Below are positions 1,891-33,145 of a stretch of 64,000 bases of DNA, one piece after another; position 1 is the first letter of the stretch; each line of letters starts with the position of its first letter. The stretch comes from an uncultured bacterium. Lineage in GTDB: Bacteria; Oederibacteriota; JAAXVQ01; JAUVAV01. The stretch spans positions 128,001 through 192,000 of the forward strand of contig CAVQBK010000001.1 of NCBI GenBank assembly GCA_963710755.1, in the 5' to 3' direction. A program made the position numbers and the translations under genes. Below the pieces are notes generated by a model that saw nothing but the letters and a program-made list of their open reading frames with translations, was not told the DNA's origin and made no database searches.

Positions 1891-2007
<117 letters not shown>

Positions 2008-2017
2008 TTTAAATATC

Positions 2018-2735: not shown

Positions 2736-2784
2736 ATTATACAATTAGCCTCGCTGGCTACAGACCCCTAAGGACCTAATACTA

Positions 2785-10546: not shown

Positions 10547-10585
10547 TTTCCCCCTTTTGCAAAGGGGGATACAGGGGGATTTGAT
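10547..10585 (+). repeat. REP-like subterminal repeat, left copy
   Basis: TTTCCCCCTTTTGCAAAGGGGGATACAGGGGGATTTGAT; 37/39 identical to the reverse complement of 12322-12360; contains a CCCCCTTT/AAAGGGGG hairpin. Confidence 0.9.
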
Positions 10586-13768: not shown

Positions 13769-13868
13769 GCCTCCCCTGAAAATGCCTGTCATGTAAGATG
13801 GCAGGGTCCAACAAATTAAATACTATTATCTAATTGGATTCAATGAAAAAAGAGGAAGGTAAGCCTAT

Positions 13869-14486: not shown

Positions 14487-14628
14487 AGGGTTTTATATCT
14501 CCCGTCAAGTCTTGTCACTTTTGAAATCGTTACAAAAGTGATAAAACTTTAACGATCCAACTGCGAAAAGGTACTTTTAGGGCAAGTGGTCAGACCAGCG
14601 AGGAGAAATAGGATGTTTGAGAAAAAGG

Positions 14629-15384
14629 TTAAGCAGACCGATTGATCAGGCCGGCACTAAATCCGGCTCCAAAACCATTGTCAATGTTGACCACGGACAC
14701 ATTGGGGGCACAAGCATTGAGCATGGTTAAAAGGGCGCTGACGCCTTCAAAGGAAGCACCATAACCAATAGATGTAGGTACACCAATCACAGGACAGGCC
14801 ACTAATCCGCCCAAAACGGAGGCTAACGCTCCTTCCATGCCGGCTACGGCTACAATACAGCGGGCTTGCTGCAACCAAGCCGTATGGGTCAGCAGACGAT
14901 GAATGCCGGCCACCCCTACATCATAGAGCTTTTCCACCTTAGCTTTGAGCAAATGGGCCGTGAGGGCGGCTTCCTCAGCCACAGGAATATCGGCAGTTCC
15001 TGCTGCAGCCACCACCACCAACCCTTCACCAACAGGCAGGGGTTTTGAGCCGATAATTATAGCTTGGGCCTCATGGTGGTAAACAGACGGAAGCGAAGAA
15101 GCTTTTATGAAACGGGCTTTGGCAGGATCCACCCTGGTTATTAGCACATGATCGCTGGTTTTGGCCAAGGCCCGGGCGATGGCGATGATTTGTTTTGCAC
15201 TTTTGTTTTGGCCGAAAATGACTTCTGGTGTACCTTGACGTAAGTGACGGTGATGGTCCGTTTTGGCAAATCCCAGATCTTCAAAGGGCAGATGTTTTAA
15301 GTCCTGCTGGGCTTGGGCTACCGATTTTTTTCCCTGAGCCACCAGCTGCAACAGTTGTTCCAGCTTTTTAGGATGCATGATCAT
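14629..15384 (-). CDS. larB: Nickel pincer cofactor biosynthesis protein LarB
   Basis: FAKTDHHRHLRQGTPEVIFG, AGTADIPVAEEA, DVGVAGIHRL, AGMEGAL, PTSIGYG, VVNIDNGFGA. Confidence 0.96.
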   Translation of the reverse strand: MIMHPKKLEQLLQLVAQGKKSVAQAQQDLKHLPFEDLGFAKTDHHRHLRQGTPEVIFGQNKSAKQIIAIARALAKTSDHVLITRVDPAKARFIKASSLPSVYHHEAQAIIIGSKPLPVGEGLVVVAAAGTADIPVAEEAALTAHLLKAKVEKLYDVGVAGIHRLLTHTAWLQQARCIVAVAGMEGALASVLGGLVACPVIGVPTSIGYGASFEGVSALLTMLNACAPNVSVVNIDNGFGAGFSAGLINRSA

Positions 15385-16300
15385 CTCCTTTTGCTTGCGG
15401 GTCCTTTAAAAGATCTCCCTTGATGGCTAATAGTTCATTACCACTGCCGGAGCGAAACCCTTCCAAATCAAGGGCCACATAGGGAAACCCCAGGTTTTTA
15501 ATTCTGCTGGTGACGGTGGCTCTGAAAACAGGGTCTTCAAAACGCTTCATTTCTTTAAGCCCTACTTCCAGCCTGATCAGATCTTTATGCCATCGGGCGC
15601 GAACGATGTTGAATCCCTGCTCGATTAAAAAAGTTTCAATTTCTTCCAATTTGGATAACAGTTCCACGGTGATGGGTTGCCCATAGGGCACACGAGTGGC
15701 CAGACAGGCGGTGGACGGTTTGTTAGACCACTCCGCTTGATACACTTCTTTGGCCAGCGTTCGGATGTCATCCTTGCTCAATCCGGCCTGCACCATGGGG
15801 CTGATAATCCCCAGTTGGTTCAGAGCCTTACGCCCGGGCCGGAAATCCTTTGAATCGGCGGTGTTGGACCCCTCCATAACCGTAGCATAACCATGTTGTT
15901 CAGCCAGTTGTTTTATTTTTGAAAAAAGATCCAACTTGCAATAGAAACAACGGTCACGGGTGTTGAGACGAAAACTGGATCTTTTGTACTCGTCAGGGGC
16001 GATCACTTGATAAGGAATAGCTTTATCCTTGAGCCATTGCAAGGCGGAAGCAAGCTCTTTCCGGGGTAAGGTAGGCGCATCGCCCAGTACAGCCAGGCAA
16101 TGACCGTCCAGGCTATCCCAGGCCGTCTGGGTTAAAAAAGTGCTGTCCACACCACCGGAAAAGGCGATGACCGCACCGCCCGATTCCTTTAAAATATTCT
16201 TTAAATAATCAAATTTAGCCTTTAGCAACGTATTATTCAAGATTTCACCTTCCGACACGTCGATGGCGTTATTATCACCTGAATGGGTCTGTATGATCAA
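15368..16300 (-). CDS. larE: ATP-dependent sulfur transferase LarE (start codon uncertain)
   Basis: PP-loop AFSGGVDS, RCFYCK, DFRPG, ACLATRVPYG, LDLEGFRSGS. Confidence 0.94.
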   Translation of the reverse strand: MIIQTHSGDNNAIDVSEGEILNNTLLKAKFDYLKNILKESGGAVIAFSGGVDSTFLTQTAWDSLDGHCLAVLGDAPTLPRKELASALQWLKDKAIPYQVIAPDEYKRSSFRLNTRDRCFYCKLDLFSKIKQLAEQHGYATVMEGSNTADSKDFRPGRKALNQLGIISPMVQAGLSKDDIRTLAKEVYQAEWSNKPSTACLATRVPYGQPITVELLSKLEEIETFLIEQGFNIVRARWHKDLIRLEVGLKEMKRFEDPVFRATVTSRIKNLGFPYVALDLEGFRSGSGNELLAIKGDLLKDPQAKGDDHAS

Positions 16301-17407: not shown

Positions 17408-20400
17408 TTGATGGCGCTTTATCAGCAACCAGTCTTCCAACGGCGCAAGTCCATGATTTTCCAGATCAAGGCCTGCGCACTTATAACCATTGCTAGTTTT
17501 TTACTACCCATTGTTTCATGGGCTTTTGAACCAGCGACTTATGGCATCAATCAACCTGCGCTCATTCATTTCAACCACCTCGCTAAACCGCTTGCCATTC
17601 CGGAAAACTTGGGAAACGTCAGAGAAAGTTTCCAGGGCAGCGACAAAGTTATCGTCAGTATTGAAGACCTTCATTGTAACTATGAAGTACAAAAAAATAT
17701 TGCAGGACTTATTTCCTACTTGGCTAAAACCCAACACTTAAAATTGGTGGGCGAAGAAGGCGCTTTTCACCGGGTGGACACATCGGTCATTACCAGTTTT
17801 CCAGTCGACCGAATCAGGGAAAAAGTAAGTGACTATTTTGTACGTCAGGGAAAAATGACAGGGGCCGAATATGTGGCTGCCGTTAATCATACCCCCATTA
17901 TTCTGGAAGGCATTGAAAGTCCTCAATTATATTTAGCCAGCGAGAAAGTTGTGCATACATTTCTAAATGCCGAAAGCCAGGGGTATATTTATGACTTGCG
18001 GGCGTTGCTGGAGCAACTTAAAAAAACAGTTTATTCCAAAGCTTTGATGGAGTTTGATCGCAAACGTCAAGCCTATCGAACAGGACACTTAACGCTGCTC
18101 CACTATGCAGCTTTTCTGGGGAAAACAGCCTTGCACCATGGTTTGACGCCGGCCGATTATCCTGCCTTGGATCAATATCTGCAAGGCCATGAAGGAGGTT
18201 TTTCATCGGATCAATTAATTCAGGAGATGGATGACCTTGATGCAAAGCTGCGTGGCTTTTTATATCAAGACCCAAAAGAACGGCAAATGGATGAAGCCTG
18301 GCAACGGGTGGACCTGATGGAAAAGCTGCTTAATATTTCCGCCACCCAGAAGGAATTGGCTGCTTTTAGACAAGAACGTTCCGCGTTTACCGTCTCGTCT
18401 ATGGCCGCTGCACTCGCCAGCTTGCAGCAGAGTCAATCAGAACACCGAGTCCTCTCGATGGATCCTGAGCTTTATCAGTTGGATAATTACCTCAAACAGG
18501 CAGAAACCTTTTATCATCTCGCTGATCGGCGTAGCAAAGCCTTTGTGGACAAATTGCTGGCCAAAATGGAGGATCATCATCAGAATCTGGCGGTGATGAT
18601 CAACGGCGGGTTCCACGCACAAGAAGTGCTCAAAGACCTTAAAAAAAGAGGCGTCAGTTACATTGCCATAAGACCACGCCTGACCCACCCCGATGTCCTC
18701 AACCCCTATTTTGAATTACTGCAGGGCCGCCAGACCCCCTTGGAAAAATTGTTGGCCAAGCACCAGAAAATCATGGCCCTGCGCAGCGGGTTTGAAGAAA
18801 TTACATTCAAGGGTTTATTACTTGTTGCATTAAAACCCTTTGGACTGCTACTTCGTAAGAGGAGAATGCCACTTATTTTGTCTGGGAACCTTGAACGCGC
18901 TTTGGAAACTTTTCAAAGGAAAAATGAAACCCTATTTAAACTTGCCAGTGAGTTTACGCCCCAAGAATATATGAAATATCACCTGCCATCAGGAATCATC
19001 GCTTATCATACAGAAATCAATCAAACTAAAAGTATTTTACTAATCGTACCTACTAGAAAAGTGGATCAATCGAAGTTACAACTTCAACGTGTTCTTGAAT
19101 ATGAGATTTATTCCGATTTTACATTTATTCATTTGAATAATTTTAATCGTGACCTAAATGATGACGAGAGTCTAGATGCCCAGATGCGCAAAACGGTGAA
19201 TACTGTGATTGCTAAATCCACCAACACCGGACTTGATTTTTACCAAATAATAAAAAATGCTTTTAAATCAATAAATAATCGCCCCCTTTCATGGCGGCAT
19301 TTCGTTTTTCCGGCGAGTGGGATAGATTTAAAAGGTCTTTATACGCCATTTGCCGGTTTTGACATAAATAAAGTGATGACATCAGCCATGCAGATCTCTG
19401 TGCGATGCTCTCTTTATTTTGGAATACTGGCTATTGCCTGGATGACCGTAGTTGATAAAAATGAGTTTGTAAAATGGATGATGTCTGTAGGTGCCGTGGT
19501 TCTTGGAAGTCTGACTGCTAATTTATTCGGTTCGGGATCGGTGAATTTATCAACTCCTTCCGGCCTTGCCCAGGTGATTGAGGAGACAGGTATTTTAAAT
19601 ATTTGCAATTATTTGGACGACAAAACTTCATGCAGTAAGTTCAGGGAAATGGCCAATAATTATAATGTCCCGTTTCTGGCAGGACCCGATGGTGACACCA
19701 TTCTTCATGGCATGGTTAACTATTTTCACAAACTTCAGACAGAAGGCGATATAAAAAAAATCAGATCTGCTTTGAAAGAGATGAAAAAAATATCCAGCGA
19801 TTTTTTCAAGCAAGAATCGGTAGTGATCGTTACAAATAATTATTACACCAACATGGAAACCATCAATGGATTGTCGCTTATTGGTGATGAACCATTGATG
19901 AATGTACTGAATTCCGAACATCAAAGAAAAGACGTTCTTTTGGATAAGGTTTATCGTAGTTTGAGGGAAGGAAGACATCGCTTCATTTTTTGGAAAAAAG
20001 AAGAAGCCGATCAGCAAAGTGTTGAAAAGCGCAAGGAAGCGCAATCTGTTTTGGATAGTCATATAAGATTGATAGAGGCTAATTTCCAAGCCTTGCCGAT
20101 GATGTCGCAAGAACAAGAAAAAATGACACGTGCCCGGCTGGAATTGATTTTGAGAATAGTAAAAACAATGGTTGAAGAATCGGCCGCTGTATATAACTCC
20201 ATGCGTTCTCCTTCCTTCAACCCCGACAGGCAAATCAACGCCCTGCGTGGCAAATTGGAGGCGTTGACCAGAGCTATCTCGGATTTGCCCGAAAATCAAT
20301 TGGATGGCAAATCGGCTTATAATCTGATCTACGATCCCACGCCATGGCATAATTTCGCGGATGTACATTCTTTGTCGCAATTTATCAACTTTGTCCATCA

Positions 20401-23400
20401 AAACAGTTTCGATATTCTTAAGAGCAGTCTTGACGCTTTGCACTACCATCCGCTGAATTTAAAAGTTCATGGGAAGAAGGTACGGCTGATTGATGTTAAT
20501 CCGGAAATTCAATTTGATGCTGGTGGGATCCATTCGAAAGCTTTGGGGCTGTTTCTTAACGGATTTGATGTGACGGTGGGATTTGCCATTAATCCTATAA
20601 TTATTATTTATAAGGATATGGTAATTGCTGACTTGAACCTTGAACAAGCCAGATTTGTTAATGATGCCACCGACTCGGGTCATTCCATCGATGTTCAATG
20701 TAAACTCGCCCCGCCCGATGAAGGAGGCATGATTAAGGTCCGACATGTGGAACATAACAGATCGCGTGCGTTGATGATACAGACCATTATGAAAGCCCTG
20801 GGTGCACAATCCGATTATAATCCAACACGATTGAACCATGTTTTAACCATTCGGCTTGATAAAGACCATGGAGCGCGAAGTGCCTTCCACATAGAAAAAA
20901 ACCTTACATTGATTGTGAAAGTTTTAATGTCCATATGGGACAATGATTTGTTGCTGGATGATGACCGGAAAGCCGTTGCTGCCGCAGAACGATTTTTGAC
21001 TACCCACCAAATCGGACATTTTGAAACTTGGAAACCTATAATTCTCAACGAGGAACAACGTGAAAAAATCAATAATAGACTTAAACATTTGAGGCTTGAA
21101 GGGACAGTGACCGCAGGGCGCTTGACACAACCAATATTGGAGAAATATGTAAACGGTCCTATTCAGCATGCTTTAGCAAGAGGTGAATTGGAGTGGAATA
21201 AAAATGAAACGAGGTTAAAACGCAATCCGAACTATCGACCTATTGATCGTTTGGTGAAGGATATTAACAAGAGAGCGTCAGCCAAGGAAATGATCCAGAG
21301 TGCCGAAGCGATTTTACCTATATTAGATAATGTTAATTGGGAACCTGTTGGAAGTGTTGGTCAATATATAGCCGAGATCGGCACCTTTTACGATAGTAAG
21401 GGAAAGGCTTATGTGGCAACGATTTTAAGGGACTATCAATACAATGACATTGCATTTGCACGTGTAACGTTGAAAACAACACCGGGAAAGCGAATGTCGT
21501 CGTCAACAGTGCGCCGTTTGATAGGAAGTAAAATTGGACATGAACTAAAACCCATAGAAGCTATTGCTGATGAAGAATTGAATAATTCTCTGGCATTGCT
21601 TACTATCCCGTGGAAAAAAACAGAAGTGCCGGGACTGACGATGTTTCAGGGAAGGACAATGGGGGCAAATAAGACAGGGCAAAATCGATTGATTTTACCT
21701 GTTACCTTTAGGGCTGAAGATAGTGCCGGCAAACTTTACATCGCGCAAAGTTTAAAACCGGAGGATGTGACTTTTATCCCTCACTTGGGTGGAATAATAC
21801 AAGAGGGTACTGCTTTGCTCTCTCATGTTTCAGTACTGGTTCGTGAATTTGGTGTGCCGTCCATAAATTTGCCTAATATGAACATTCTTACCACAGATGA
21901 AGGTAAAAAAATATGCTATCTGGAAAATTTCGAACCTCTTCGCCAAGTGCCAACAAGAGATGGGTATTGGATATCGCGAACGATCAGGAAACATATACAT
22001 GTTTTAACTGAAGGTCAGAGGGTAATGATTGATGCCGGAAGCGGTGCACTTGTTGTATCGGAGAAGACTTCAGGGAATACGGATTTGTTGAAATTGGCCT
22101 ATGGTACCAGGTCGAAAAAATATAGTCGGCCTGTTCGAAGACAAGGTGGAAAAGGTGTTAAGATCAATAACCCGATTGTTCCGAAAACATCAACCATTCG
22201 CCGGCTGGGCAACGAAATGTCCACGTATGTGAGAATTGGTGAACTGGAAAGCAAGGATTATCCTGCCGTCGGGCCAAAAGCTGAGCAATTAGATCAATTA
22301 GCCAAAAATGCAGAGACCATGCCTTATGAGGTGCCGGGAGGGATCGTTGTTACCGCAAAGTTTTATCAAGACTTATTAGAAAAAAACGGAATCGAAGAAA
22401 AGTTGACACGTTTATTGAATGAGCAAACCATGTCGCCGCAGGAGGTGGCAAAACAATTTGACGACGTTTTACAGGACTTATTGGAAAATAAAACCAAATG
22501 GCTAGAAGAACAGGAAAAGAAAATATCAACGTTTCTCAAGGGGATTGATCCTGATGAAAGATGGTGGGCGGTACGGTCGGCCGGTCTGATCGAAGACACC
22601 AAAGACTTTTCGTTTACCGGATTGGGGATAACTGATTTATATGTACATCGTGATCATGTCCTTGAACATGTTATCTTAAATTTACGATCCCTGGCTTCGC
22701 CAAGTGCTGTCGCTTATTTGAGGGAGAATGGTCTTTCGCTTAAAGGTCTTTTTCATTCAGTGATTGTTCAAAAAATGCAACCTGGTGACGTTTCGGGCGT
22801 TGCTTTTACTAGCGACCCCGTAATTCCATCGGATCATGTTGTTATTAATGCAGCATATGGTTTAAATGAGGGGATCGTTAGCGGCATTGTAGCCCAGCCC
22901 GATGAATATACGGTGGATGAAAATAATTATCACGAGGTTGGCAAAAAAATAGGGAATAAGCGGTTGAAAGTTGTACCTGATCCGGATAACCAAAATGTGC
23001 AAATTATGATGGTCCAGGAGGGGGCAAGGGAACGTGCCTTAACGAGAAGACAAGTGGCGCTTTTAGCGAGACTGGCCAAAAAGATCAAGGAACGATATGG
23101 CGATTCGGATTTTGAATGGACCATTGATAAAGGAAAACTGTATTTATTTCAAAGACGACCTATTACGACTAAAGGAAACACCAATATTAAGAATGGGCGA
23201 TCCATGACAGGCGGAAGTTGGCCATGGATGAGAAGTTTGTGGCTGAGAGCGGGTCTTCCAGGTCGGTTGTATGATCAATGGTTTGCATGGTTGTTGGAAA
23301 ATGGGATTTCCCAAATAGTGGGTACTCCGGCATTGGGAATGGCGTTAATAATAATTGATTTAATCACTAATTCCCATTTGGGCGGCCTTTCAGAAGCAAC

Positions 23401-26400
23401 TATTGGTTGGTTTGTTTTTTTTCTATTGCATTTTATCCAAATGTTGGACTTGGAAACCAAGCCCAATCTTGGATTGTCCCTGCACTCGGATAGAGCGCCG
23501 CCGGCCACGGTCCTTATTCCTGCTTTGGTTATAACAATTCTAGGCATTACTTTTCAAATGTTACCTCTATCGCCACTTGGATTGGGTATACACTTTTTCA
23601 TGAATATCATTTCGCCTTATTTGGCTGAACATATATGGCTGCCTTTGAGAAATTTGGCCTTTCATTTTTTTATACAAAAAACAAACAAAGCCGCAGGCCC
23701 TAGCAGAGGGAGCAAATACTATCGTTTGGTGCTCGTTGCCTCTATCGTAGCTTACCTATTTTGGTTGGGAGGGCTTCTCGATCTAATTGTAGGGTGTTAT
23801 TTGGTTTATCATTTTATGTCGCCGGAAATCCTTACCAGGGCAAAAGCAGCCGGTACGCCACATGATCGGGTATTTGCCTTGAGGAAATTCGAACTGTCGG
23901 AAAAAGCAGAAAACAGTGTGAATTTAATTGCTGCGGATTCAGAAGGAAACATTGCCATCGCCCCCAGAGTGGCTACGTTTTCTCCTTACCGGCAATATGT
24001 GATTTTGGCTCAAATTTTAATGGGTCCCAAATTTTATTTATCCACCTTTTTAGGGAGATTTCTTACACCATTAGTTGGTGTGTATTTACTGGTACAAAAT
24101 AAATTGTATCATTATCAAATGATGGAGTTTGCTCAAAAAATTGAAGATACAGGTCTTTTGCATGCCCTTATATTGATTGATAATCAGAGAACCATGAACC
24201 GATTTGTGCGAATGGCCAAGCAAGATCGATTTGGATTATCTCGGTTAGATCTCAATGCCGATAGTGCCAAGGAGTTGTTGGCCCGCTTCGCTGATTTTTT
24301 AGAAGAACATAAAGATGACAAAAACGGGGATGCATTGTTGGAAAAGACCAGGGCGCTTGCATCGGCTTTTACTAAAGCCATGGATGTCCTGTTGGTAGAA
24401 AACACCTATCACTACCCAATGACTTATGCTAACGATTTAAAGATTGTGGCGGACGAAACATTGTCGGATGCATTGGCTCCCGCTGAAACTGTTTCCGAGC
24501 CTTTACTCCATCAACTTCTTGGTCGATATGAAAATGCCAAAGGACGATATTTCATATTCAGAAATAAAGAACAGGCTATTGCAGCTTTTGACAACCAAAG
24601 ACGGCAAGGAAACCGCTTTCAACATCAAAGGAAACTGATTGAAACTTATTTTACTGGTTTGCAATTGTTCGCTCAGAAACCTAGAAAGCTGAATCGTGAA
24701 TACATCAAAAGGATGTTTGAGATAGTTGGAACAATGGTTCGGGAAACGAGTGGTATTTACGAAAATATGCGCATGTTGGGAGAAGATCCGGGTAATAGAA
24801 TAAAATTAATGACAGACAAATTAGATTATTTCGAGAAAAGAATAAGCCGTATTCCGGATGAAGAATTGAACAACGCTTCAACTTTTGAATTCATCTTTGG
24901 TAAAAAAAGATGGATTACTTTTAACGATATCCAAACCTTGGCTCAGTATATGGATTTTTTACAAGCCAATGGGGTTTTGCTGCTTAAGGGTTCTCTGGAG
25001 AAGGTGGCTCAACCGCCCTTGCAACTGCGCTTGGAAGGCAAAAGAGTGAGAATGATAGACATTGATGAAGGTCCGATGTTTGATAAAGGCGGTGTCCACA
25101 GCAAGGTGTTAAGGCGTTTTTTTTATGGGTGGGATATCCCGGTCAATGCTATTGATATTCAACCTACTGTTATTTTGTATAGAGATATGATCATTGCTGA
25201 TCTTAACAGGGAAAGACATCAATTTGGAGATGATGCTTATCAAACCGGCCATTGGATAGACATACAATGCAAATTGAAGGCTCCTTCGGAAGGAGGGTTA
25301 ATTAACATCCGCTATTTGGAGCAAAATGCCAGCCGGTCAATCGCGATTCAGAAGGTACTAAGAGCATTAGGATTTTCCACACAATATGAACATAAATTAC
25401 TGACGGCCCAATTTAACAGTATTACCGGGGCCAGGAGTATAAGTGATATCGAAAACGTCCTTCCTGTGGTTGTTAAGTTGTTGTTGTCGACATGGGACAA
25501 CGATGAGTTTATAGATAACGAAAAGCGCGCTCATTTGGTGGCCGATAATTACTTGGCGACCCGTCAAATCATACGCTATAGCCGGTGGCCTTTATTAAAA
25601 ATTGATGAAAGAATAAGACAACTTATTAATGCGCGTATGAGACAGCTAGGGTTGAAGACAAGATACCCAGAAGAGATCTTGTCTCAAGGTAATTTAGACC
25701 AATATGTGAACGAACCAATCGAACATGCATTAGAAAGGGATGAATTGGAATGGGACGCTCGTAGGTCACGATTGGTTCTTAATCCGGATTACAAACCGAT
25801 GGAACGCTTGCTGAAAGATTTAAATGAGCCCGTGGAAGCTAAAGAATTATTAAAAGCGGCGGAAATTATATTGCCTCTTTATGAAAATGTCCGTTGGGAT
25901 GCCATTGGCGCAGTCGGGAAATATTTAATGGAAGTCGGTGTTTTTCGGGATGAAAATGGCATTGCTTTTGTTATGACCATCCTAAAGGACATTCGGACCA
26001 ATGATATTGCTTTTGCAAGGGTTTCATCAAAAAAATATCCGGGTGTAAAAGTCGGTGCAGATGAATTGCGTGAGATGGTTAGTTACAAAATTGGTCATCA
26101 ACTCAAGCCGATTGAGGATATCCCTGATGAAGAAGTGGACAATTATTTGTCGATGCTGAGAAAGCCATGGAGAGACAGCTATGGCGGGAATGCTACGGTC
26201 TATCCCGGAAAAATTATCAGTTACGGACCCCGAAAAACATTGCTCGAGGCATTACGAGTAACTTTTAACCCTGAAAATAGTCAGGGAAAACTCTATATTA
26301 CAGAAAATCTTTCTCCTGATAATGTGACGTTTATGCCGGGCTTGGGGGGCGTTTTGCAAGAAGGGACATCTTTACTTTCCCATACGGCCGTTTTACTTCG

Positions 26401-29400
26401 GGAGTTTAAAATACCATGCTTAAACTTGATGAACATGGACATCATCTTGAAACCGGATGGGACAAAATGTGCACGCTTGGAAAGTTACGAACCAACGGAC
26501 ATTCATGTAACTGCGGAAGGATACCAGGTAGCCCGGAGAATAATCGAACGTTCTTATAATTTGGAGGAAGGGCAATTTGTAATATTTAATCAAATGGCTG
26601 GAGAGATAAGCTTAGCGCAAGATTTCAAAGATTTATTGCGCTTACTGAGAGACAAGAAGAGGAGACGAGAAGAGGGGAGAAAATTAGCCAAAGAAAAGAA
26701 GAAAATTATTCATGAATACCAAAAGAAAAAGCTGGCCGATGACACAAGATATTTTGTGCGAATTGGTGATATGAAAAATAATGAAATTGATGCCACGGGT
26801 ACGAAAGCAAGAGAAATAGATCGCCTGCAGCATGACGCAAACGAATTAGACTATCAAATCCCTCCGGGAATAATTGTTACGGCGAAATTCTATGAAGACC
26901 TCATCAGTAAACACGGTTTGAGAAAACCATTAATGGAGCTCCTGAATAATACAAGACTTTCTCCAGAAGAAGTAGCACGACAATTTAAGCAAATATTGCT
27001 GGCGGTAATGCACCAAAAAAGTCCGTGGTTATTGGAACAGGAAGAAAGCCTTGAAAAGGCACTAAAAGCTGTCGGTGGTAATGAGCAGTGGTGGGCCGTA
27101 CGTTCGGCAGGAATAGAAGAAGACCAATTAGACCATTCCTTTGCGGGGCTCGGATTAACGGACTTATACGTTCACAGTGACCATATCATGGAACACCTCA
27201 TATTGAATGTGGCGGCTTTGGCCGAACCAAGTGCCATGAAATACCGGCAGGAAAACGGGCTACAAATTAGAAGGATATTACATTCAGCGATTGTGGAAAA
27301 AATGCAACCAGGGCAGGTCTCGGGGGTCACCTTTAGCAAAGATCCGGTAACAGGCGACAACACGCATTATGTGATTACGGCCGCCTTTGGATTGAACGAG
27401 GGGATATTAAAAGGTCATGTAGCAACACCAGATGAATATTTGGTACGTGCAGACAACAATCACGAACAAGGGAAAACCATTGGCGACAAAAAATTTAAAG
27501 TAGTGCCTGATTTAGATCATCAGAATGTAAAGGTTGTAGTCAATGAAGACAATCCGCGCGAACGAGCATTGTCACGTGAACAAGTTAGTCGCTTGGCCCA
27601 TCTGGCTTCGGTGTTGAAAAACCGGTATGGCCATTGTGATTTTGAATGGACAATCTCCGATGGTCAATTGTATTTGTTCCAGAGAAGACCGATCACTACC
27701 GGTCAGACCAAAGAGGGGGATGTAGAATATCTGACAAAAACAAATGACTTTCAGAAAAAATATTTTAAAAAGAATGTATTTGAAGTGTTGTTTCGTCAAG
27801 AAGGAAATGCTAGAGAAATGATCGCGATATTGTTAAAACTGATCCCTTCACTTGGCGTGCTAACGGGATTGTTCTTTTGGAATGTCGGATATACGATCTT
27901 GGGCATAGGGGTTATAACGATTGGAATGCTCATAATTATTATGGGAAAAATATTGCTAACCCATGACTACGCCCGCAACGGTAATGACGAGAAGGGTATA
28001 AGTGCAGACGCTAAATCGGGTTTGCCCAACTGGTTCGACGTAATAAAATTCCTGATTGCAACAGCTATTGTTTTAATTTTGCTGAGTTTTTCGCCATGTG
28101 CTTTTGGAATGATGGAGGGTATTACCCAAACAGGCAGTGTGGTGGTGGTTGGCATTGTTGCGACGATAGGATCATTAACCATTTTAGCCCGGAATTTTAA
28201 GCCTATTATTTTTGACGATAAAGGTCACCGCCATGGTGTTTTTGATGGCTCCAAAAACGAGAGTAGGGACTCACAGAGAGCGAAAAAAGCGATAGAAACA
28301 TATTCCTCCGAGGATTTGATAAAAAGTAATCAAGCCGTTGATTTTAAAAACTACCAAAAAGATGGCAGTAACCTTTCGTTGGGTGCTTTGGTCAATCAAT
28401 TGCTCGATTTTTCTGCGACCACCGAAGATGGGGGCAATGGGTTTGTTCGCTGGAATCCCGCTAAAGCGATGTTCAAAAAACTGGGCGATCGGTTTGTTTT
28501 GAAATTCATTCCCGGACGGGCCAAGGAAAGCAATCGCCGCGCTGCCGGCCAAAGTGCTGTTTTAAATGGTCAAAGAGGGTCGTTTTTATTAAAAATAACG
28601 CCTCCATTAATCATTGGCGGTATTGGTATGTTTTTTATATTAAACGTATCACCTTGGTTTGGGATTGCCTTTATGTCAGCCTGGGGGTTGGCTTATTTTA
28701 TTTATAAAAAATTGGGTGATAAGCCTGTGAAATCGACCGTAGAGTGGCTAGAAGATTTAAACAGATCCCAACGCCAAAAGCCTTTCTGGACATGGCCTAA
28801 ATTATTGCTTGCCGTGGCGATAATAGCAGCCGTGGCAGCCTATTTTAATCAGGATATTATATCCTTATACCACTTTTTATTTTTTAATATCGCTAGTGTT
28901 TTTGAGGTAAACCGTTTTTCCAAGACCGGTCAAGCAGCTGCCACCAGCACAGCTTCAACTAAAGATCTAACGCAGCAGGTGGCGCCGACCAGTCCTTCAG
29001 AAGAGGTCCAGCTTGATGCCGTAATTCGAGCTCAGGGATTTAATCATCAAATATTAGGTGCCTTGTCAGAGCAGTCAAACACGCCCTGGCAGCAGATCTG
29101 GCTCAATCTAACGCAATACCTCACCAGCCGCTGGATGATGAGTATTAGGGGGCAAGAAGATAAATTACAGGGACCAATTCAGGAAAAGGACCAGCAACTT
29201 ATTTTGAATTTGTTTATAAAGCATTATATCCATTCCGTACCGCAACTGTTTGGCCTTTTAGGGAAAAACGTCAAAATAGCCATGGCCAAAACCACGGAGA
29301 CGAACAATGAAGGGATGCTCCACTTTGATGCGGCCACTAAAACTTATAGTTTAAAACTGCCGGCTTATTGCTTCAACAATCAGGGAAGATTAAGCAAATC

Positions 29401-29788
29401 AGGTCAGTGGCTGCTGGGCATGACCATGTCTCAAATCCGTATGGACGAACAGAAGCAAGTCGACGTGAATTATAATAGGGAAGAACTCCTCGTTGCTCAA
29501 CTGCAGCGACTCGTACTTGACCATCAGAGCCTGAAAGATGCTTGGTTAAGCCATTTAGACCAGGGAAAAGAAAATAGTCCTAATGGGTTAATGGTCGTCA
29601 TTAAGTCCGAGGTTTACAAACATGATCTCACTCAATTGCAGCGTGAAATTAAAATAATTGCTCAACAAGCTAAAAAAGATAGTCTTTTACAAAATGAGTT
29701 AAACGCTCTTCTCAAGTCCATTGCAAATGGGGATAGGCATCGCCAACGTCAAAGGCATATGATGAAGTATGTTAATCAGGCGGTATAA
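17408..29788 (+). CDS. Giant 4126-aa membrane protein with two PEP-utiliser (phospho-His) + PPDK_N (ATP-grasp) modules
   Basis: Uninterrupted 12.4-kb ORF; N-terminal signal-like segment; LLSHVSVLVREFGVP and LLSHTAVLLREFKIP; twice WAVRSAG..ED, (Q/E)KMQPG.VSGV.F..DP, GLNEGI..G....PDEY, DFEWTI..G.LYLFQRRPITT; hydrophobic helix clusters. Confidence 0.9.
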   Translation: MMALYQQPVFQRRKSMIFQIKACALITIASFLLPIVSWAFEPATYGINQPALIHFNHLAKPLAIPENLGNVRESFQGSDKVIVSIEDLHCNYEVQKNIAGLISYLAKTQHLKLVGEEGAFHRVDTSVITSFPVDRIREKVSDYFVRQGKMTGAEYVAAVNHTPIILEGIESPQLYLASEKVVHTFLNAESQGYIYDLRALLEQLKKTVYSKALMEFDRKRQAYRTGHLTLLHYAAFLGKTALHHGLTPADYPALDQYLQGHEGGFSSDQLIQEMDDLDAKLRGFLYQDPKERQMDEAWQRVDLMEKLLNISATQKELAAFRQERSAFTVSSMAAALASLQQSQSEHRVLSMDPELYQLDNYLKQAETFYHLADRRSKAFVDKLLAKMEDHHQNLAVMINGGFHAQEVLKDLKKRGVSYIAIRPRLTHPDVLNPYFELLQGRQTPLEKLLAKHQKIMALRSGFEEITFKGLLLVALKPFGLLLRKRRMPLILSGNLERALETFQRKNETLFKLASEFTPQEYMKYHLPSGIIAYHTEINQTKSILLIVPTRKVDQSKLQLQRVLEYEIYSDFTFIHLNNFNRDLNDDESLDAQMRKTVNTVIAKSTNTGLDFYQIIKNAFKSINNRPLSWRHFVFPASGIDLKGLYTPFAGFDINKVMTSAMQISVRCSLYFGILAIAWMTVVDKNEFVKWMMSVGAVVLGSLTANLFGSGSVNLSTPSGLAQVIEETGILNICNYLDDKTSCSKFREMANNYNVPFLAGPDGDTILHGMVNYFHKLQTEGDIKKIRSALKEMKKISSDFFKQESVVIVTNNYYTNMETINGLSLIGDEPLMNVLNSEHQRKDVLLDKVYRSLREGRHRFIFWKKEEADQQSVEKRKEAQSVLDSHIRLIEANFQALPMMSQEQEKMTRARLELILRIVKTMVEESAAVYNSMRSPSFNPDRQINALRGKLEALTRAISDLPENQLDGKSAYNLIYDPTPWHNFADVHSLSQFINFVHQNSFDILKSSLDALHYHPLNLKVHGKKVRLIDVNPEIQFDAGGIHSKALGLFLNGFDVTVGFAINPIIIIYKDMVIADLNLEQARFVNDATDSGHSIDVQCKLAPPDEGGMIKVRHVEHNRSRALMIQTIMKALGAQSDYNPTRLNHVLTIRLDKDHGARSAFHIEKNLTLIVKVLMSIWDNDLLLDDDRKAVAAAERFLTTHQIGHFETWKPIILNEEQREKINNRLKHLRLEGTVTAGRLTQPILEKYVNGPIQHALARGELEWNKNETRLKRNPNYRPIDRLVKDINKRASAKEMIQSAEAILPILDNVNWEPVGSVGQYIAEIGTFYDSKGKAYVATILRDYQYNDIAFARVTLKTTPGKRMSSSTVRRLIGSKIGHELKPIEAIADEELNNSLALLTIPWKKTEVPGLTMFQGRTMGANKTGQNRLILPVTFRAEDSAGKLYIAQSLKPEDVTFIPHLGGIIQEGTALLSHVSVLVREFGVPSINLPNMNILTTDEGKKICYLENFEPLRQVPTRDGYWISRTIRKHIHVLTEGQRVMIDAGSGALVVSEKTSGNTDLLKLAYGTRSKKYSRPVRRQGGKGVKINNPIVPKTSTIRRLGNEMSTYVRIGELESKDYPAVGPKAEQLDQLAKNAETMPYEVPGGIVVTAKFYQDLLEKNGIEEKLTRLLNEQTMSPQEVAKQFDDVLQDLLENKTKWLEEQEKKISTFLKGIDPDERWWAVRSAGLIEDTKDFSFTGLGITDLYVHRDHVLEHVILNLRSLASPSAVAYLRENGLSLKGLFHSVIVQKMQPGDVSGVAFTSDPVIPSDHVVINAAYGLNEGIVSGIVAQPDEYTVDENNYHEVGKKIGNKRLKVVPDPDNQNVQIMMVQEGARERALTRRQVALLARLAKKIKERYGDSDFEWTIDKGKLYLFQRRPITTKGNTNIKNGRSMTGGSWPWMRSLWLRAGLPGRLYDQWFAWLLENGISQIVGTPALGMALIIIDLITNSHLGGLSEATIGWFVFFLLHFIQMLDLETKPNLGLSLHSDRAPPATVLIPALVITILGITFQMLPLSPLGLGIHFFMNIISPYLAEHIWLPLRNLAFHFFIQKTNKAAGPSRGSKYYRLVLVASIVAYLFWLGGLLDLIVGCYLVYHFMSPEILTRAKAAGTPHDRVFALRKFELSEKAENSVNLIAADSEGNIAIAPRVATFSPYRQYVILAQILMGPKFYLSTFLGRFLTPLVGVYLLVQNKLYHYQMMEFAQKIEDTGLLHALILIDNQRTMNRFVRMAKQDRFGLSRLDLNADSAKELLARFADFLEEHKDDKNGDALLEKTRALASAFTKAMDVLLVENTYHYPMTYANDLKIVADETLSDALAPAETVSEPLLHQLLGRYENAKGRYFIFRNKEQAIAAFDNQRRQGNRFQHQRKLIETYFTGLQLFAQKPRKLNREYIKRMFEIVGTMVRETSGIYENMRMLGEDPGNRIKLMTDKLDYFEKRISRIPDEELNNASTFEFIFGKKRWITFNDIQTLAQYMDFLQANGVLLLKGSLEKVAQPPLQLRLEGKRVRMIDIDEGPMFDKGGVHSKVLRRFFYGWDIPVNAIDIQPTVILYRDMIIADLNRERHQFGDDAYQTGHWIDIQCKLKAPSEGGLINIRYLEQNASRSIAIQKVLRALGFSTQYEHKLLTAQFNSITGARSISDIENVLPVVVKLLLSTWDNDEFIDNEKRAHLVADNYLATRQIIRYSRWPLLKIDERIRQLINARMRQLGLKTRYPEEILSQGNLDQYVNEPIEHALERDELEWDARRSRLVLNPDYKPMERLLKDLNEPVEAKELLKAAEIILPLYENVRWDAIGAVGKYLMEVGVFRDENGIAFVMTILKDIRTNDIAFARVSSKKYPGVKVGADELREMVSYKIGHQLKPIEDIPDEEVDNYLSMLRKPWRDSYGGNATVYPGKIISYGPRKTLLEALRVTFNPENSQGKLYITENLSPDNVTFMPGLGGVLQEGTSLLSHTAVLLREFKIPCLNLMNMDIILKPDGTKCARLESYEPTDIHVTAEGYQVARRIIERSYNLEEGQFVIFNQMAGEISLAQDFKDLLRLLRDKKRRREEGRKLAKEKKKIIHEYQKKKLADDTRYFVRIGDMKNNEIDATGTKAREIDRLQHDANELDYQIPPGIIVTAKFYEDLISKHGLRKPLMELLNNTRLSPEEVARQFKQILLAVMHQKSPWLLEQEESLEKALKAVGGNEQWWAVRSAGIEEDQLDHSFAGLGLTDLYVHSDHIMEHLILNVAALAEPSAMKYRQENGLQIRRILHSAIVEKMQPGQVSGVTFSKDPVTGDNTHYVITAAFGLNEGILKGHVATPDEYLVRADNNHEQGKTIGDKKFKVVPDLDHQNVKVVVNEDNPRERALSREQVSRLAHLASVLKNRYGHCDFEWTISDGQLYLFQRRPITTGQTKEGDVEYLTKTNDFQKKYFKKNVFEVLFRQEGNAREMIAILLKLIPSLGVLTGLFFWNVGYTILGIGVITIGMLIIIMGKILLTHDYARNGNDEKGISADAKSGLPNWFDVIKFLIATAIVLILLSFSPCAFGMMEGITQTGSVVVVGIVATIGSLTILARNFKPIIFDDKGHRHGVFDGSKNESRDSQRAKKAIETYSSEDLIKSNQAVDFKNYQKDGSNLSLGALVNQLLDFSATTEDGGNGFVRWNPAKAMFKKLGDRFVLKFIPGRAKESNRRAAGQSAVLNGQRGSFLLKITPPLIIGGIGMFFILNVSPWFGIAFMSAWGLAYFIYKKLGDKPVKSTVEWLEDLNRSQRQKPFWTWPKLLLAVAIIAAVAAYFNQDIISLYHFLFFNIASVFEVNRFSKTGQAAATSTASTKDLTQQVAPTSPSEEVQLDAVIRAQGFNHQILGALSEQSNTPWQQIWLNLTQYLTSRWMMSIRGQEDKLQGPIQEKDQQLILNLFIKHYIHSVPQLFGLLGKNVKIAMAKTTETNNEGMLHFDAATKTYSLKLPAYCFNNQGRLSKSGQWLLGMTMSQIRMDEQKQVDVNYNREELLVAQLQRLVLDHQSLKDAWLSHLDQGKENSPNGLMVVIKSEVYKHDLTQLQREIKIIAQQAKKDSLLQNELNALLKSIANGDRHRQRQRHMMKYVNQAV
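19565..23170 (+). repeat. Giant-protein internal repeat unit 1 (~1200 aa dikinase-like module)
   Basis: LAQVIEETG ... LFQRRPITT, collinear with unit 2. Confidence 0.85.
24128..27700 (+). repeat. Giant-protein internal repeat unit 2 (~1190 aa dikinase-like module)
   Basis: FAQKIEDTG ... LFQRRPITT; shares blocks such as GH.ID.QCKL, WDND, YVN.PI.HAL.R.ELEW, NDIAFARV. Confidence 0.85.
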
Positions 29789-30242: not shown

Positions 30243-31766
30243 ATGTCAACGGTTCTAGTCGTGGATGACGAACAGGGTATAAGGGAATCTTTAAACATCC
30301 TATTATCCAGCGATGGGCATGAAGTTGTACTCGTCGAGAATGGGAAATCAGCCCTCGACTATCTTAAGAATGAAACTGTGGACGTGGTATTGACAGATAT
30401 TCGTATGCCTGAAATGAATGGTCTTACTTTGCTAAAGACCATTCGCAAGGAATGGCAAGACCGCATTCCGGTCATCATCTTAACCGCCTATGGGGCCATT
30501 CCTTCTGCAGTGGATGCAGTGAAGGAAGGCGCGGCCGATTTTATTACCAAGCCTTTTGATATTGAACGTTTGAAAACAGCCGTGACTGAAGCAGTGGATT
30601 TGCGCAATCAAGCACTCAACCAAGCGTTTAAAGAAAATGACCAAGAAAACAAGTTTTTAAAAACCATGAACCAAAAACTAGACCGCGCTGTTTTCGAATT
30701 GGCTATCCTGCACGAGATCGGCAAAATCATCAATTCCACTCTTGAATTAAAAAAAATCGTCTCCATCATCTTGGAAATGACCCGGCAGGCAGTTAATGCA
30801 GACCGTGCCCGCCTGGTATTATTTAAACCGGATTCCAAGGACATTGAAATGGATCTTTCGTATACGGTTGATGAAAGCATTGCCCGCCGTTACTCTGTTT
30901 TGGATAATTATGCCATGGATTGGGTATTGAAAAAAGATGAAGCTTTATTGATCGAAGATATCACGCAATTGAGTTATTTCAAGACCTTGCCGGGATCCCA
31001 CAATGGTTTGCGCTCTTTCATGGTCGTGCCTTTTAAACGCAAAAATCATACCGTGGGGGCCATTCTTCTGGCTAAATTCACATGTAACGATAAATTTTAT
31101 CCTGAAGATTTTCGATTTGTCAAAACTCTGGCCAATCAGGTGGCCATTGCCATCGAGAATGCCCAACTGTACAACGAGCTACAGGTTCATTTCGGAGAAA
31201 CAATTCGTGCCCTGATTACAGCTATAGAAACCAAAGATGCCTATACCTATGGCCACTCTGACCGGGTCACAGAATACTCAACCATGATTGGCAATGCCTT
31301 GGGACTTGATTTTCTTGACATCCGAAGACTGGAATATTTGGCTCTGCTTCATGATGTGGGTAAGGTTGGCGTGGACGGTCAGATTTTAAGGAAAACCGGT
31401 AAACTTGACCATCAGGAATGGGAAGCGATCAAGGATCATCCTAAATTAGGCAGTATGATTATCAAGCCTATTAAATTTTTAGAAGACGACGGTGCGCGTA
31501 CCATCCGTCATCATCATGAATGGTATAATGGTCATGGTTATCCTGATGGCCTCAAAGGAGACGCGATTCCAATTTTTTCGAGAATCATTGCTATTGCCGA
31601 TGCGTTTGATGCGATGACCAGTATGCGTCCTTACCGCGGCAGTCTGGCTGTGGAAGAAGCATTGAAAGAATTGAAAAGGTGCGCAGGGGAACAGTTTGAC
31701 CCTTCGCTTGTGGACCTGTTTTGCAGTTCTTATGCCAACAAACCGGCATCAGAATCTAAAAAATAA
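30243..31766 (+). CDS. Response regulator with REC, GAF and HD-GYP (c-di-GMP phosphodiesterase) domains
   Basis: VLVVDDE...TDIRMP...KPF; GAF ending LANQVAIAIENAQLY; GHSDRV, LHDVGK, HHHEWYNGHGYPDGL, IADAFDAMTS.RPYR. Confidence 0.94.
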   Translation: MSTVLVVDDEQGIRESLNILLSSDGHEVVLVENGKSALDYLKNETVDVVLTDIRMPEMNGLTLLKTIRKEWQDRIPVIILTAYGAIPSAVDAVKEGAADFITKPFDIERLKTAVTEAVDLRNQALNQAFKENDQENKFLKTMNQKLDRAVFELAILHEIGKIINSTLELKKIVSIILEMTRQAVNADRARLVLFKPDSKDIEMDLSYTVDESIARRYSVLDNYAMDWVLKKDEALLIEDITQLSYFKTLPGSHNGLRSFMVVPFKRKNHTVGAILLAKFTCNDKFYPEDFRFVKTLANQVAIAIENAQLYNELQVHFGETIRALITAIETKDAYTYGHSDRVTEYSTMIGNALGLDFLDIRRLEYLALLHDVGKVGVDGQILRKTGKLDHQEWEAIKDHPKLGSMIIKPIKFLEDDGARTIRHHHEWYNGHGYPDGLKGDAIPIFSRIIAIADAFDAMTSMRPYRGSLAVEEALKELKRCAGEQFDPSLVDLFCSSYANKPASESKK

Positions 31767-31915
31767 CGTTGTCTGTAAAGGTTTTTATTGATCATTGGAA
31801 AGGATAGGAGAGGGATAATCATTGGCCGATTATTCCAGAAAGCACCATTGAAAATAGCATTTTTCTAAAAGGGCATTAGTTCAAATTCGGGTGACCAATA
31901 CGGGGGGGGACGACT

Positions 31916-33145
31916 TTGAGTGGGAAATTGCTTATCGTAGATGATGAAGTCGGGATTCGGACTGCTTTGGAGTTGTTACTGGAAGAAGAAGGCTATTTGG
32001 TTAAGACCGTACCTGATGGTAAAACCGCTATTGAAGCGGTACGCAGTGAGCCATTTGATGTGGTGCTGTCGGATGTACGTATGCCCGGTGCCAGCGGACT
32101 GGAATTGTTGGACGAGATTCGTCATATGACCGCAGGGCCGGAACTCATCATCATGACGGCTTACGGTAGCATCGAAACCGCCATTCAAGCCTTGAAAAAT
32201 GGGGCTCGTGATTTTCTCATCAAGCCCTTTTCCAATGACCTACTCAAGATGACCATCAAGCGTGTGCTCCAGATCCGGGAACTTTCGGAGGAGAATATGA
32301 AATTGCGCGAACTGGAGCGCATGAAAAAAGAATTTATTACTATGATTGCCCATGAACTGCGCACCCCCTTGACCGCGATCAAAGGGTATCTGAAGCTGGT
32401 GCTCTCCGGTATGGCCGGCGAATTAAGAACCAACCAGAAAGAGTACCTGGGCGTGGTTCATCAGAATTCAGAACGCCTGCAGAGCATCATTAACAAAATG
32501 ATCGATATGGGACAGCTCGAATCGGCTGATTTTGTACTGCATACCATGACCGCTAACACCCTCAATGTGATTTGGGAATCCATTTCGGAAATTCAGGAAA
32601 CCTACGAAAAGAAAAGATTGCAGTTGGAAGTTAACCTGTCCTCCACCTTAAAACCTATTGTGGTGGACCCACAACGCATGAAACAGGTTATCAATGTCTT
32701 GCTTGATAATGCCGTCAGTTTCAGTCCACCCAATAAACGCATATGGTTGTCCGTACAACGGTGGGATGGGGCGGAAAATATGCGTGATGATCAACGGCCT
32801 ACTTCCTATGTGGAGTTCGATGATCTCAAGGAAATGGAGTATTTGGAAATTACGATAAGGGATGAAGGCCCGGGTATTCCTGAGGACAAGCTGTCCCAAG
32901 TATTTGAAAAATTTTATCAAGTGGACGATCTTTATGTCCGGCATGTGGGCGGCATGGGTGTAGGATTATCATTATGTAAAAAAATCGTGGAGTTAATGGG
33001 CGGGAAAATATGGGTGAAAAGCAGTCTTGGCCAAGGTTGCGAATTTACATTTATTCTGCCCTGGTATACCCCGCCGGAGGGTTTTAGTGAAGTCGTCGAA
33101 CGCTCGGATAGTCGCAATGAAGCCAAAACGACCATAGCGGCTTAA
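31916..33145 (+). CDS. Hybrid REC-histidine kinase
   Basis: LLIVDDE...SDVRMP; AHELRTPL H-box; LLDNAV, DEGPGI, GMGVGL. Confidence 0.93.
   Translation: MSGKLLIVDDEVGIRTALELLLEEEGYLVKTVPDGKTAIEAVRSEPFDVVLSDVRMPGASGLELLDEIRHMTAGPELIIMTAYGSIETAIQALKNGARDFLIKPFSNDLLKMTIKRVLQIRELSEENMKLRELERMKKEFITMIAHELRTPLTAIKGYLKLVLSGMAGELRTNQKEYLGVVHQNSERLQSIINKMIDMGQLESADFVLHTMTANTLNVIWESISEIQETYEKKRLQLEVNLSSTLKPIVVDPQRMKQVINVLLDNAVSFSPPNKRIWLSVQRWDGAENMRDDQRPTSYVEFDDLKEMEYLEITIRDEGPGIPEDKLSQVFEKFYQVDDLYVRHVGGMGVGLSLCKKIVELMGGKIWVKSSLGQGCEFTFILPWYTPPEGFSEVVERSDSRNEAKTTIAA

Follow-up and report, generated by a model that had tools for sequence, protein, structure and literature searches.

A predicted membrane-threaded giant protein with two permuted dikinase-like modules and a head domain shared by a family of bacterial giants

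A 64-kb stretch of DNA from an uncultured bacterium (contig CAVQBK010000001.1, positions 128,001 to 192,000, analysed at its full length of 64,000 nucleotides and herein referred to as the window) carries a giant open reading frame (ORF) at 17408..29788 on the forward strand, which comprises 4126 codons including the stop when read from a TTG at 17408, while the ATG at 17411 gives 4125. The predicted protein contains two paralogous dikinase-like modules of about 1,150-1,200 amino acids, each composed of a domain of about 550 amino acids that we term X, a phospho-histidine swivel domain and an ATP-grasp domain in this order, and it opens with an N-terminal domain (the head) that recurs at the start of many other giants. 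We consider it reasonably probable that the gene product is a single multi-domain protein integral to the membrane, in which the modules relay phosphate from ATP via a histidine to an acceptor on X. Multi-enzyme membrane giants in general are already known from preprints; what we regard as new is the permuted, presumably non-pyruvate His-swivel dikinase module with a candidate acceptor domain of its own, duplicated inside an undescribed giant family.

The assignment of the modules is based on Pfam analysis of the whole protein, which returned two stretches matching PPDK_N (PF01326; E 9.8e-106, best at residues 1620-1928) and two matching PEP-utilizers (PF00391; E 1e-13), and besides these nothing else notable; judged by the sequence matches, the domain E-values lie far outside chance. 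Module 1 (19730..23203 on the forward strand, as are all features of the protein given below; residues ~775-1932) consists of a lead-in, X, the swivel domain (21665..21997) with the predicted catalytic His1473 (codon 21824-21826), and the PPDK_N-type ATP-grasp domain (22220..23203) with the motifs WAVRSAG (1720), FEWTI (1902) and FQRRPITT (1914). Its paralog, module 2 (24125..27757; residues ~2240-3450; 41-42% identity), has its own swivel domain (26240..26557) with His2992 (codon 26381-26383) and its own PPDK_N-type ATP-grasp domain (26747..27757) with the corresponding motifs at 3229, 3412 and 3424. Both histidines are embedded in GT(A/S)LLSH..(V/L)L.REF, and this stretch aligned to the catalytic-His helix of the rifampin phosphotransferase (RPH) of Listeria. 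An earlier note on this DNA had described the same ORF and had proposed two complete His-swivel and ATP-grasp modules at 19565-23170 and 24128-27700, with the His codons at 21824 and 26381. Our data agree on each of these points: the ORF has the same coordinates and 4126 codons in an uninterrupted translation, both Pfam families match twice, the diagnostic motifs are intact in both modules, the two codons encode H1473 and H2992 within the conserved swivel motif, and the module boundaries lie near our own. The modules share 41% identity over 1207 amino acids, and the best match of each is the other (42%, versus at most 30% for anything else fetched). Because they are 41% identical and mutually closest relatives, the pair is, on the evidence of these alignments, an old intragenic duplication and not an assembly repeat.

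The histidine domain stands ahead of the ATP-grasp domain, as the earlier note had observed, which is the order of the potato glucan water dikinase (GWD) GWD1 and the opposite of that in RPH and phosphoenolpyruvate (PEP) synthase. A pyruvate-binding triosephosphate isomerase (TIM) barrel was likewise missing, in agreement with the note: PEP-utilizers_C, the PEP/pyruvate barrel family (PF02896), is absent from the protein in the Pfam search at E<=0.1, NCBIfam found none, and the region preceding the His, as modelled by AlphaFold2, does not form an (alpha/beta)8 barrel. Nor did isolated X match any Pfam or NCBIfam family at E<=0.01; together with the non-barrel model, this argues against a standard pyruvate-binding domain at this position, a possibility the note had raised against its own interpretation. 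The best matches among PDB sequences were the ATP-grasp domains of RPH and PEP synthase (E 4e-31). NCBIfam models for PEP synthase, RPH, PigC and RedH matched only through their first ~320-340 positions and well under their cut-offs, with 357.8 bits for the best equivalog (PEP synthase; cut-off 883), 260 for the RPH model NF041857 (cut-off 999) and 13.9-19.6 bits for the models of pyruvate phosphate dikinase (PPDK).

The region ahead of each histidine, X, spans 19985..21652 in module 1 (X1; residues ~860-1415) and 24554..26212 in module 2 (X2). Residues 775-1420 were compared exhaustively by phmmer with a set of 1.84 billion representatives (E<=1e-3), which yielded 58 non-self proteins with E-values down to 7e-57; including the query itself, 59 matches were listed, 34 at E<=1e-10 and 5 at E<=1e-30, and they span positions ~85-640 of the query, i.e. 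residues ~860-1415. Domain order in these relatives was determined by a local phmmer scan with the window's own domains, which located an ATP-grasp domain in 48 of the 58 and the swivel His domain in 43, to which Pfam, run on 20 of the relatives, added three more (P0027, P0028, P0051). The order X, His, ATP-grasp was found in 36/58 relatives, and two showed the order ATP-grasp, X, His known from RPH. The three domains co-occur in otherwise unrelated large proteins, and X invariably stands shortly before the swivel domain. As the median gap from X to the swivel is short (79 amino acids) and that from swivel to ATP-grasp is long (276 amino acids) and often holds insertions, X and His appear as a tight unit and the ATP-grasp domain as movable, which fits the expectation for an acceptor-side domain served by a swivelling histidine. 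The pairing of head and X also recurs, since 14 of the 58 relatives open with the head domain, 12 of them with a detected ATP-grasp domain and 8 with both His and ATP-grasp. Taken at the sequence level, the pre-His region thus presents itself as a conserved, previously unclassified domain of ~550 amino acids and the module as a recurrent evolutionary unit.

Among the relatives, 73 positions of X are family-conserved (at least 75% conserved), including H1092, PDEGG 1103-1107, E1115, R1120, G1132, DKDH 1151-1154 and Q1241; X1 keeps 50 of the 73 and X2 keeps 38. The ESM Atlas gave no usable match to X, and a six-sequence profile found no relative among PDB sequences, its best match, Hsp82 (E 0.077), being rejected. 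The AlphaFold2 model (16-row alignment, pLDDT 79.4, pTM 0.54) is of mixed alpha/beta type; it begins as a helical bundle and continues into alpha/beta and beta-rich subdomains. Foldseek returned nothing under E 0.03 for this model in the PDB; STAT3, DHH and histidine-kinase cores (probability <=0.5) and the C-terminal domain of T4 MotA (145 columns, probability 0.77, E 0.16) were taken as noise. Comparison with the central domain of three RPH-like proteins by hhalign, with a thin profile, gave a probability of 0.2%.

Additional domains in the 20 relatives scanned with Pfam bear on the nature of the acceptor. A low-molecular-weight (LMW) phosphatase domain (LMWPc) with an intact CX5R[ST] loop was present in seven of them (P0018, P0019, P0033, P0045, P0062, P0063, P0075), where it usually sits between the His and ATP-grasp domains; HEAT repeats occurred in five and WD40 repeats in one. 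Several of the LMWPc-bearing relatives carry the loop CTGNTCRS, which we presume to resemble that of arginine-phosphatase-type LMW phosphatases. By analogy with the known dikinases, the acceptor is probably not pyruvate, and because X relatives are fused to LMW phosphatase, HEAT and WD40 domains, we lean towards a protein or another macromolecule that is reversibly phosphorylated.

GWD1 is among the closest known systems. Its dikinase chemistry and domain order are described in PMC13553574, according to which a central domain of 20 alpha-helices is followed by the His domain and a C-terminal ATP-binding domain, the latter reported to be closer to RPH than to PPDK. The modules share with GWD1 the order of acceptor-side domain, His swivel and ATP-binding domain as well as a presumably non-pyruvate acceptor. 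They differ in that the giant carries neither CBM45 nor any other carbohydrate-binding module recognizable by Pfam in the whole protein or its pieces, and in that it is membrane-threaded and tandem-duplicated. The mixed alpha/beta model of X also seems to differ from the helical central domain of GWD1, a distinction drawn from the published description; no GWD entry was among the PDB fold matches listed for X, although the GWD1 entry 9HA9 may lie outside the set that was searched. RPH provides the best solved ATP-grasp match, an alignable catalytic-His helix and the same logic of ATP-grasp, substrate domain and His swivel, but the modules are permuted to X-His-ATP-grasp, X appears unrelated to and is much larger than its substrate domain, and the score falls below the NCBIfam cut-off. 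PEP synthase and PPDK share PPDK_N and PEP-utilizers with the giant, which in contrast lacks the PEP/pyruvate barrel, reverses the order and stays under the respective cut-offs.

His-swivel dikinases constitute a small class, with pyruvate, starch, rifamycins, some flavonoids, aromatics and prodiginine precursors as known acceptors, and the chemistry of PEP synthase, PPDK, GWD and RPH is established. Building on this chemistry, we propose that the ATP-grasp domain of each module would bind ATP, that His1473 (or His2992) would take up the beta-phosphate, and that the swivel domain would bring the phosphate to an acceptor held by X, with release of AMP and phosphate. X would accordingly serve as the acceptor-binding domain of a permuted, non-pyruvate dikinase, and the head, a probable hydrolase of the TIKI/Ere type, would lie outside. 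X is conserved yet rare, with 58 clusters among 1.84 billion; its rarity, the permuted order relative to the bacterial enzymes and the frequent fusion to an intact LMW phosphatase point to a new acceptor and possibly to a reversible phosphorylation system.

The head comprises residues ~41-560 (17528..19087), with a core to ~460, and is weakly similar to TIKI proteins and erythromycin esterases. Its AlphaFold2 model (19-row alignment, pLDDT 77, pTM 0.72) shows an N-terminal helix (10-39) followed by an alpha/beta core with strands at 69-75, 81-87, 113-116, 165-168, 394-400 and 417-423, flanking helices and a helical insertion of ~220 residues. The conserved residues are placed just after strands in this model: D87, L88 and H89 hardly vary in the alignment of 19 sequences and do not vary in one of 9, E117 and E170 do not vary in either, and G400-G401-x-H403 occurs in 90% or more of the 19 rows, H403 being near-invariant in the 19-sequence alignment only. 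The TIKI superfamily is described as having a parallel sheet core and a catalytic set of two His and two Glu, with His85 and Glu113 in Bcr135, and as including proteases, one of them a MARTX effector (PMC6254334). The spacing of 28 residues between H89 and E117 equals that between His85 and Glu113 of Bcr135. From this spacing and the post-strand positions, compared without superposition, we infer that the head residues may be equivalent to the Ere/RRSP catalytic set. The best PDB fold matches of the model were EreC (6xcs) and Bcr135 (3b55), with Foldseek probabilities of 0.84-0.87, and the Pfam family ChaN/Tiki (PF04187) reached E 0.0011, below its cut-off, on the distant member P0009. The likeness to TIKI, Ere and ChaN would consist in the succession of strands and the near-invariant D87-x-H89, the invariant E117 and G400-G401-x-H403; the ~220-residue insertion, weak E-values, low TM-scores and lack of recognition by Pfam or PDB profiles set the head apart. 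A TIKI/Ere-like hydrolase fold is likely but unproven. Pfam and NCBIfam returned no family at E<=0.01 for the isolated domain, the ESM Atlas only unnamed clusters of ~500-560 amino acids, commonest in Omnitrophota, and a PDB profile match to CLIC2 (E 0.07) was rejected.

The head defines the wider family to which the giant belongs. A whole-protein search retrieved at full length only the giant itself, and 14 other proteins (2,512-7,206 amino acids) matched residues ~4-560 only. Behind the head they carry diverse content: an SNF2 helicase with a methyltransferase (P0009), a hexokinase with GH77 (P0011; precomputed Pfam), CheR (P0012), EF-hands (P0013) or a GlnD-type nucleotidyltransferase with HATPase (P0006). 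With residues 1-560 as the query, 26 proteins between 382 and 944 amino acids long were retrieved, many of which bear the label partial; their sources are Candidatus Firestonebacteria, candidate division FCPU426 and unnamed bacteria. Scanning one genome per species with the 9-sequence alignment returned 185 relatives, of which the best 80 were kept, corresponding to 77 loci in 13 assemblies assigned to FCPU426, Firestonebacteria, Goldiibacteriota or 'uncultured bacterium'. Of these 77 kept loci, 18 stem from a single FCPU426 metagenome-assembled genome (MAG), and adjacent loci on one contig (L035/L065, L049/L069) suggest tandem arrays. FCPU426 is regarded as one and the same lineage as Goldbacteria, neighbouring Firestonebacteria and Elusimicrobia, as outlined in PMC7031533.

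In the kept loci, the head nearly always starts a very long frame; complete frames range from 710 to 3,811 amino acids, mostly 1,500-3,800, and many frames exceed 3,800 and are still open where the fetched DNA ends. Pfam cargo in 16 complete frames included DnaJ, Armadillo repeats, protein kinase, calcineurin-like phosphoesterase, saccharopine dehydrogenase, CheR, PPDK_N followed by PEP-utilizers, HATPase_c and glycosyltransferase 1, and six of the 16 gave nothing at E<=1e-5. One frame of 3,553 amino acids (L041:316-10974, forward strand) combines enolase with triosephosphate isomerase, and further loci carry other cytoplasmic-type cargo (L001, L003, L004, L028, L029, L034, L038). X occurs in none of the 77 kept loci within the fetched DNA, and one of them, L029, has ATP-grasp ahead of His in the canonical order. 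A membrane cassette found after module 1 (residues 1936-~2070, about 135 in length; 23213-23620), with G-WPW..., four hydrophobic helices and an RAPPA loop, also occurs between the cargo blocks of L070, L021, L010 and L030, twice in L010. The family therefore seems, by comparison of these frames, to be assembled from head, cargo blocks and reusable membrane cassettes, and is best described as a large family of giants with interchangeable enzyme cargo behind a shared head. Poorly known phyla would thereby spend a large share of their genomes on membrane-threaded giants with interchangeable cargo. Our literature searches returned no description of X, of the X-His-ATP-grasp module or of the head family in FCPU426, Goldiibacteriota or Firestonebacteria, although preprint supplements may hold similar architectures.

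The giants of Omnitrophota and neighbouring lineages offer a parallel in overall organization, as they combine long ORFs with many transmembrane (TM) helices between cytoplasmic-type enzyme domains. They exceed 10,000 amino acids and carry SecA-DEAD or C39/S8 peptidase domains according to a 2023 preprint (West-Roberts et al.), which names PPDK_N in a supplementary figure legend, and a 2026 Omnitrophota preprint discusses the same topology paradox. Our protein differs in size (4.1 thousand amino acids compared with more than 10-100 thousand) and in the lack of SecA-DEAD, C39 and S8 domains in the Pfam search; its head relatives come from MAGs of FCPU426/Goldiibacteriota and Firestonebacteria, and neither the head nor the X-His-ATP-grasp module is mentioned in the consulted passages of the Omnitrophota texts. 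At this length and with clear motifs, the giant represents a tractable case for the membrane-side question posed by the far larger Omnitrophota giants.

Kyte-Doolittle hydropathy, the basis of all membrane segments given here, indicates ~14-17 hydrophobic segments outside the globular domains, with the main zones at residues 20-36, 667-707, 1970-2229, 3472-3594 and 3734-3832, i.e. where the earlier note had placed them. The N-terminal segment (residues ~20-40; 17465..17527) resembles a signal peptide or signal anchor, preceded by three K/R and followed by a conserved WAFE. Two segments of moderate hydrophobicity (residues 667-683 and 691-707; 19394..19543) precede module 1, an inter-module membrane region (23213..24103) that begins with the cassette continues with segments to residue 2229, and a C-terminal membrane region (27815..28906) contains four strong segments (3472-3594), a polar loop of ~130 amino acids and two to three more segments (3734-3832). 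The final ~290 amino acids (28907..29785) matched no family, and none of the fetched proteins or loci contained a relative of this region; neither the isolated inter-module region nor the C-terminal 686 amino acids gave a Pfam or NCBIfam family at E<=0.01. The three K/R would place the N-terminus inside, yet hydropathy and K/R counts give inconsistent parity along the giant and were not used for topology. A simpler case is the relative P0029, whose sole hydrophobic segments, at residues 17 and 560, lie on either side of the head, with X-His-ATP-grasp after them; this arrangement corresponds to the simple topology that we propose, with the head outside and the cargo inside.

With moderate confidence, we prefer to view the giant as a membrane-anchored protein with cytoplasmic modules, because of its many dispersed hydrophobic segments, the lack of neighbouring secretion genes and the housekeeping-type cargo of its paralogs. 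TM-based localisation is called unreliable for Omnitrophota giants in the 2023 preprint (West-Roberts et al.), and the 2026 preprint reads TM-only giants as carrying enzymes on the cytoplasmic face. Several observations weigh against this interpretation and the proposed mechanism. An N-terminus inside, combined with the pair at 667-707, puts module 1 outside, except if the weaker segment at 465-481 crosses the membrane as well, and the number of inter-module segments is odd (five at threshold 1.5, seven at 1.4); the cytoplasmic placement of the modules follows from their dependence on ATP, which demands the cytoplasm, and not from a topology prediction. Section 21 of the 2026 preprint reads the enzymes of giants with both signal peptide and TM segments as periplasmic or extracellular. 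The acceptor-binding role of X is assigned solely from its position. In X2, DKDH is replaced by NSIT (25421-25432), the D of PDEGG by S, and 35 of the 73 conserved positions are lost, so that module 2, for all its intact His and ATP-grasp motifs, may have a changed or lost acceptor site; it may be regulatory or of different specificity. For the head, the fold matches were weak (Foldseek E 0.025, TM-score 0.17-0.22), PF04187 matched one of 19 members (E 0.055), and a head profile searched against PDB sequences found no Ere or TIKI entry.

The main competing explanation, which the earlier note had put forward as one option in calling the protein apparently exported, is a delivered polyprotein or effector, in which the N-terminal signal would export the chain, the head as a TIKI-type protease or another protease would cut it, and the modules would act in the cytoplasm of another cell; the head family would then represent a polymorphic cargo-delivery system. 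The signal-like N-terminus followed by the conserved WAFE would suit such a function, as would naive hydropathy parity, which sets module 1 on the side of the head, and the combination of one head, variable cargo and many paralogs per genome, exemplified by the MAG that contributes 18 of the 77 kept loci. The protease members of the TIKI superfamily, with their MARTX effector (PMC6254334), and the published interpretations of Omnitrophota giants, which lean to effectors, also speak for it. We nevertheless consider export unlikely. Hydropathy yields no consistent parity on which export could be based, at least ten hydrophobic segments along the chain point to stable membrane integration instead of release, and the cargo is of housekeeping type (enolase, TIM, hexokinase, DnaJ) and not toxin-like. 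Moreover, the giant revealed neither processing sites nor an autoprocessing domain, and the assignment of the head as a protease is weak. The gene neighbourhood, a short-chain dehydrogenase (SDR), LarB/LarC and two-component regulators, includes no secretion, pilus or lysis genes flanking the giant gene. A broader version, which strikes us as rather unlikely, holds that the head marks a previously unrecognised cargo system of FCPU426/Goldiibacteriota, Firestonebacteria and their neighbours that presents, or upon cleavage releases, ATP- and cofactor-dependent enzymes outside the producer's cytoplasm, for example in a partner or prey cell, with X-His-ATP-grasp as a new class of protein or polymer dikinase. 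In this unlikely scenario, dozens of paralogous giants per genome would share an exported TIKI-like hydrolase head and reusable TM cassettes, and their enzymes would range from dikinase modules and kinases to glycolytic enzymes and chaperone domains.

A further alternative is a membrane-tethered small-molecule (antibiotic or metabolite) phosphotransferase of the RPH or flavonoid/aromatic kinase type, in which X would bind a small hydroxylated compound. The closest solved relatives of the ATP-grasp domain are indeed structures of Listeria RPH (5hv1, 5hv2, 5fbs), the NCBIfam models rph, PigC and RedH match this domain, and two X relatives possess the RPH-like order ATP-grasp-X-His. Against these resemblances stand the score of 260 for the RPH equivalog with its cut-off of 999, the dissimilarity of X to the RPH-like central domain (hhalign 0.2%, thin profile), the sheer size of X, which with 550 amino acids and several subdomains is far bigger than a small-molecule pocket requires, and the fusion of relatives to LMW phosphatase, HEAT and WD40 domains. 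Taken together, a small-molecule acceptor appears quite improbable.

Finally, the integrity of the gene had to be considered, as the source is probably a metagenome, in which giant ORFs are easily misassembled, and as the GC content of the gene (0.40-0.43) is slightly below that of nearby DNA (0.41-0.51). An assembly chimera, named in the earlier note as one outcome that would overturn its reading, or a decaying, non-expressed gene is nonetheless very improbable. The frame is free of internal stops over its whole 12.4 kb, and an identical database protein of 4125 amino acids (P0002) derives from a separate 25-kb contig. Fourteen further proteins pair the N-domain with X, and an ATP-grasp domain was detected in 12 of these; the 41% identity of the modules excludes a collapsed or expanded repeat, and both modules retain their catalytic motifs. 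We therefore conclude that the gene is real and intact. Since P0002 has 4125 amino acids, translation probably starts at the ATG at 17411, which sits 8 nt after GAGGAG, rather than at the TTG. A duplicated PEP synthase or PPDK embedded in a fusion, with pyruvate/PEP as substrate, is scarcely credible: PEP synthase models do top the NCBIfam names, but their match covers only the first ~320-340 of ~800-900 model positions with scores far below the cut-offs, PF02896 is missing, the order is reversed and X is modelled as a non-barrel.

Within the window, no further copy of any part of the giant was found, and scans for promoters and terminators at both ends of the gene gave nothing over background. 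Two antisense ORFs within the gene (19628-20449, reverse strand, 273 amino acids; 20459-20839, reverse strand, 126 amino acids) are probably chance frames. The upstream neighbour is the short-chain dehydrogenase, and downstream, at 30243-33145 on the forward strand, follow a response regulator-GAF-HD (HD_5) protein and a receiver-HisKA-HATPase hybrid kinase. At its start (1-2008), the window contains the 3'-terminal 1.8 kb of a 23S rRNA gene (1-1782), truncated by the window edge, together with a 5S gene, and it also encodes GlnRS, ferredoxins, LarB/LarC, RlmN, HisG, MgsA and several two-component proteins; the rRNA genes aside, it looks like the ordinary chromosome of an anaerobe. On the reverse strand upstream of the giant gene, an insertion sequence-type DDE transposase (396 amino acids) lies beside a DUF559 endonuclease-like gene (10585-12319), and a group at 12563-16300, possibly a lactate-racemase cofactor cluster, comprises a LarC-like nickel insertion protein, an SprA-related protein, a LarB-like AIR carboxylase homolog and a 310-amino-acid ORF without family match. 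About 22 kb downstream of the giant gene lies a type IX secretion-like cluster (51589-60095, forward strand) encoding a 1,087-amino-acid Kelch-repeat protein, a UPF0164 protein, a protein with CHU_C (the type IX secretion signal) and a PorV/OmpA protein, which is followed at 60154-63998 by a HlyD/AcrB efflux pair of the resistance-nodulation-division (RND) type.

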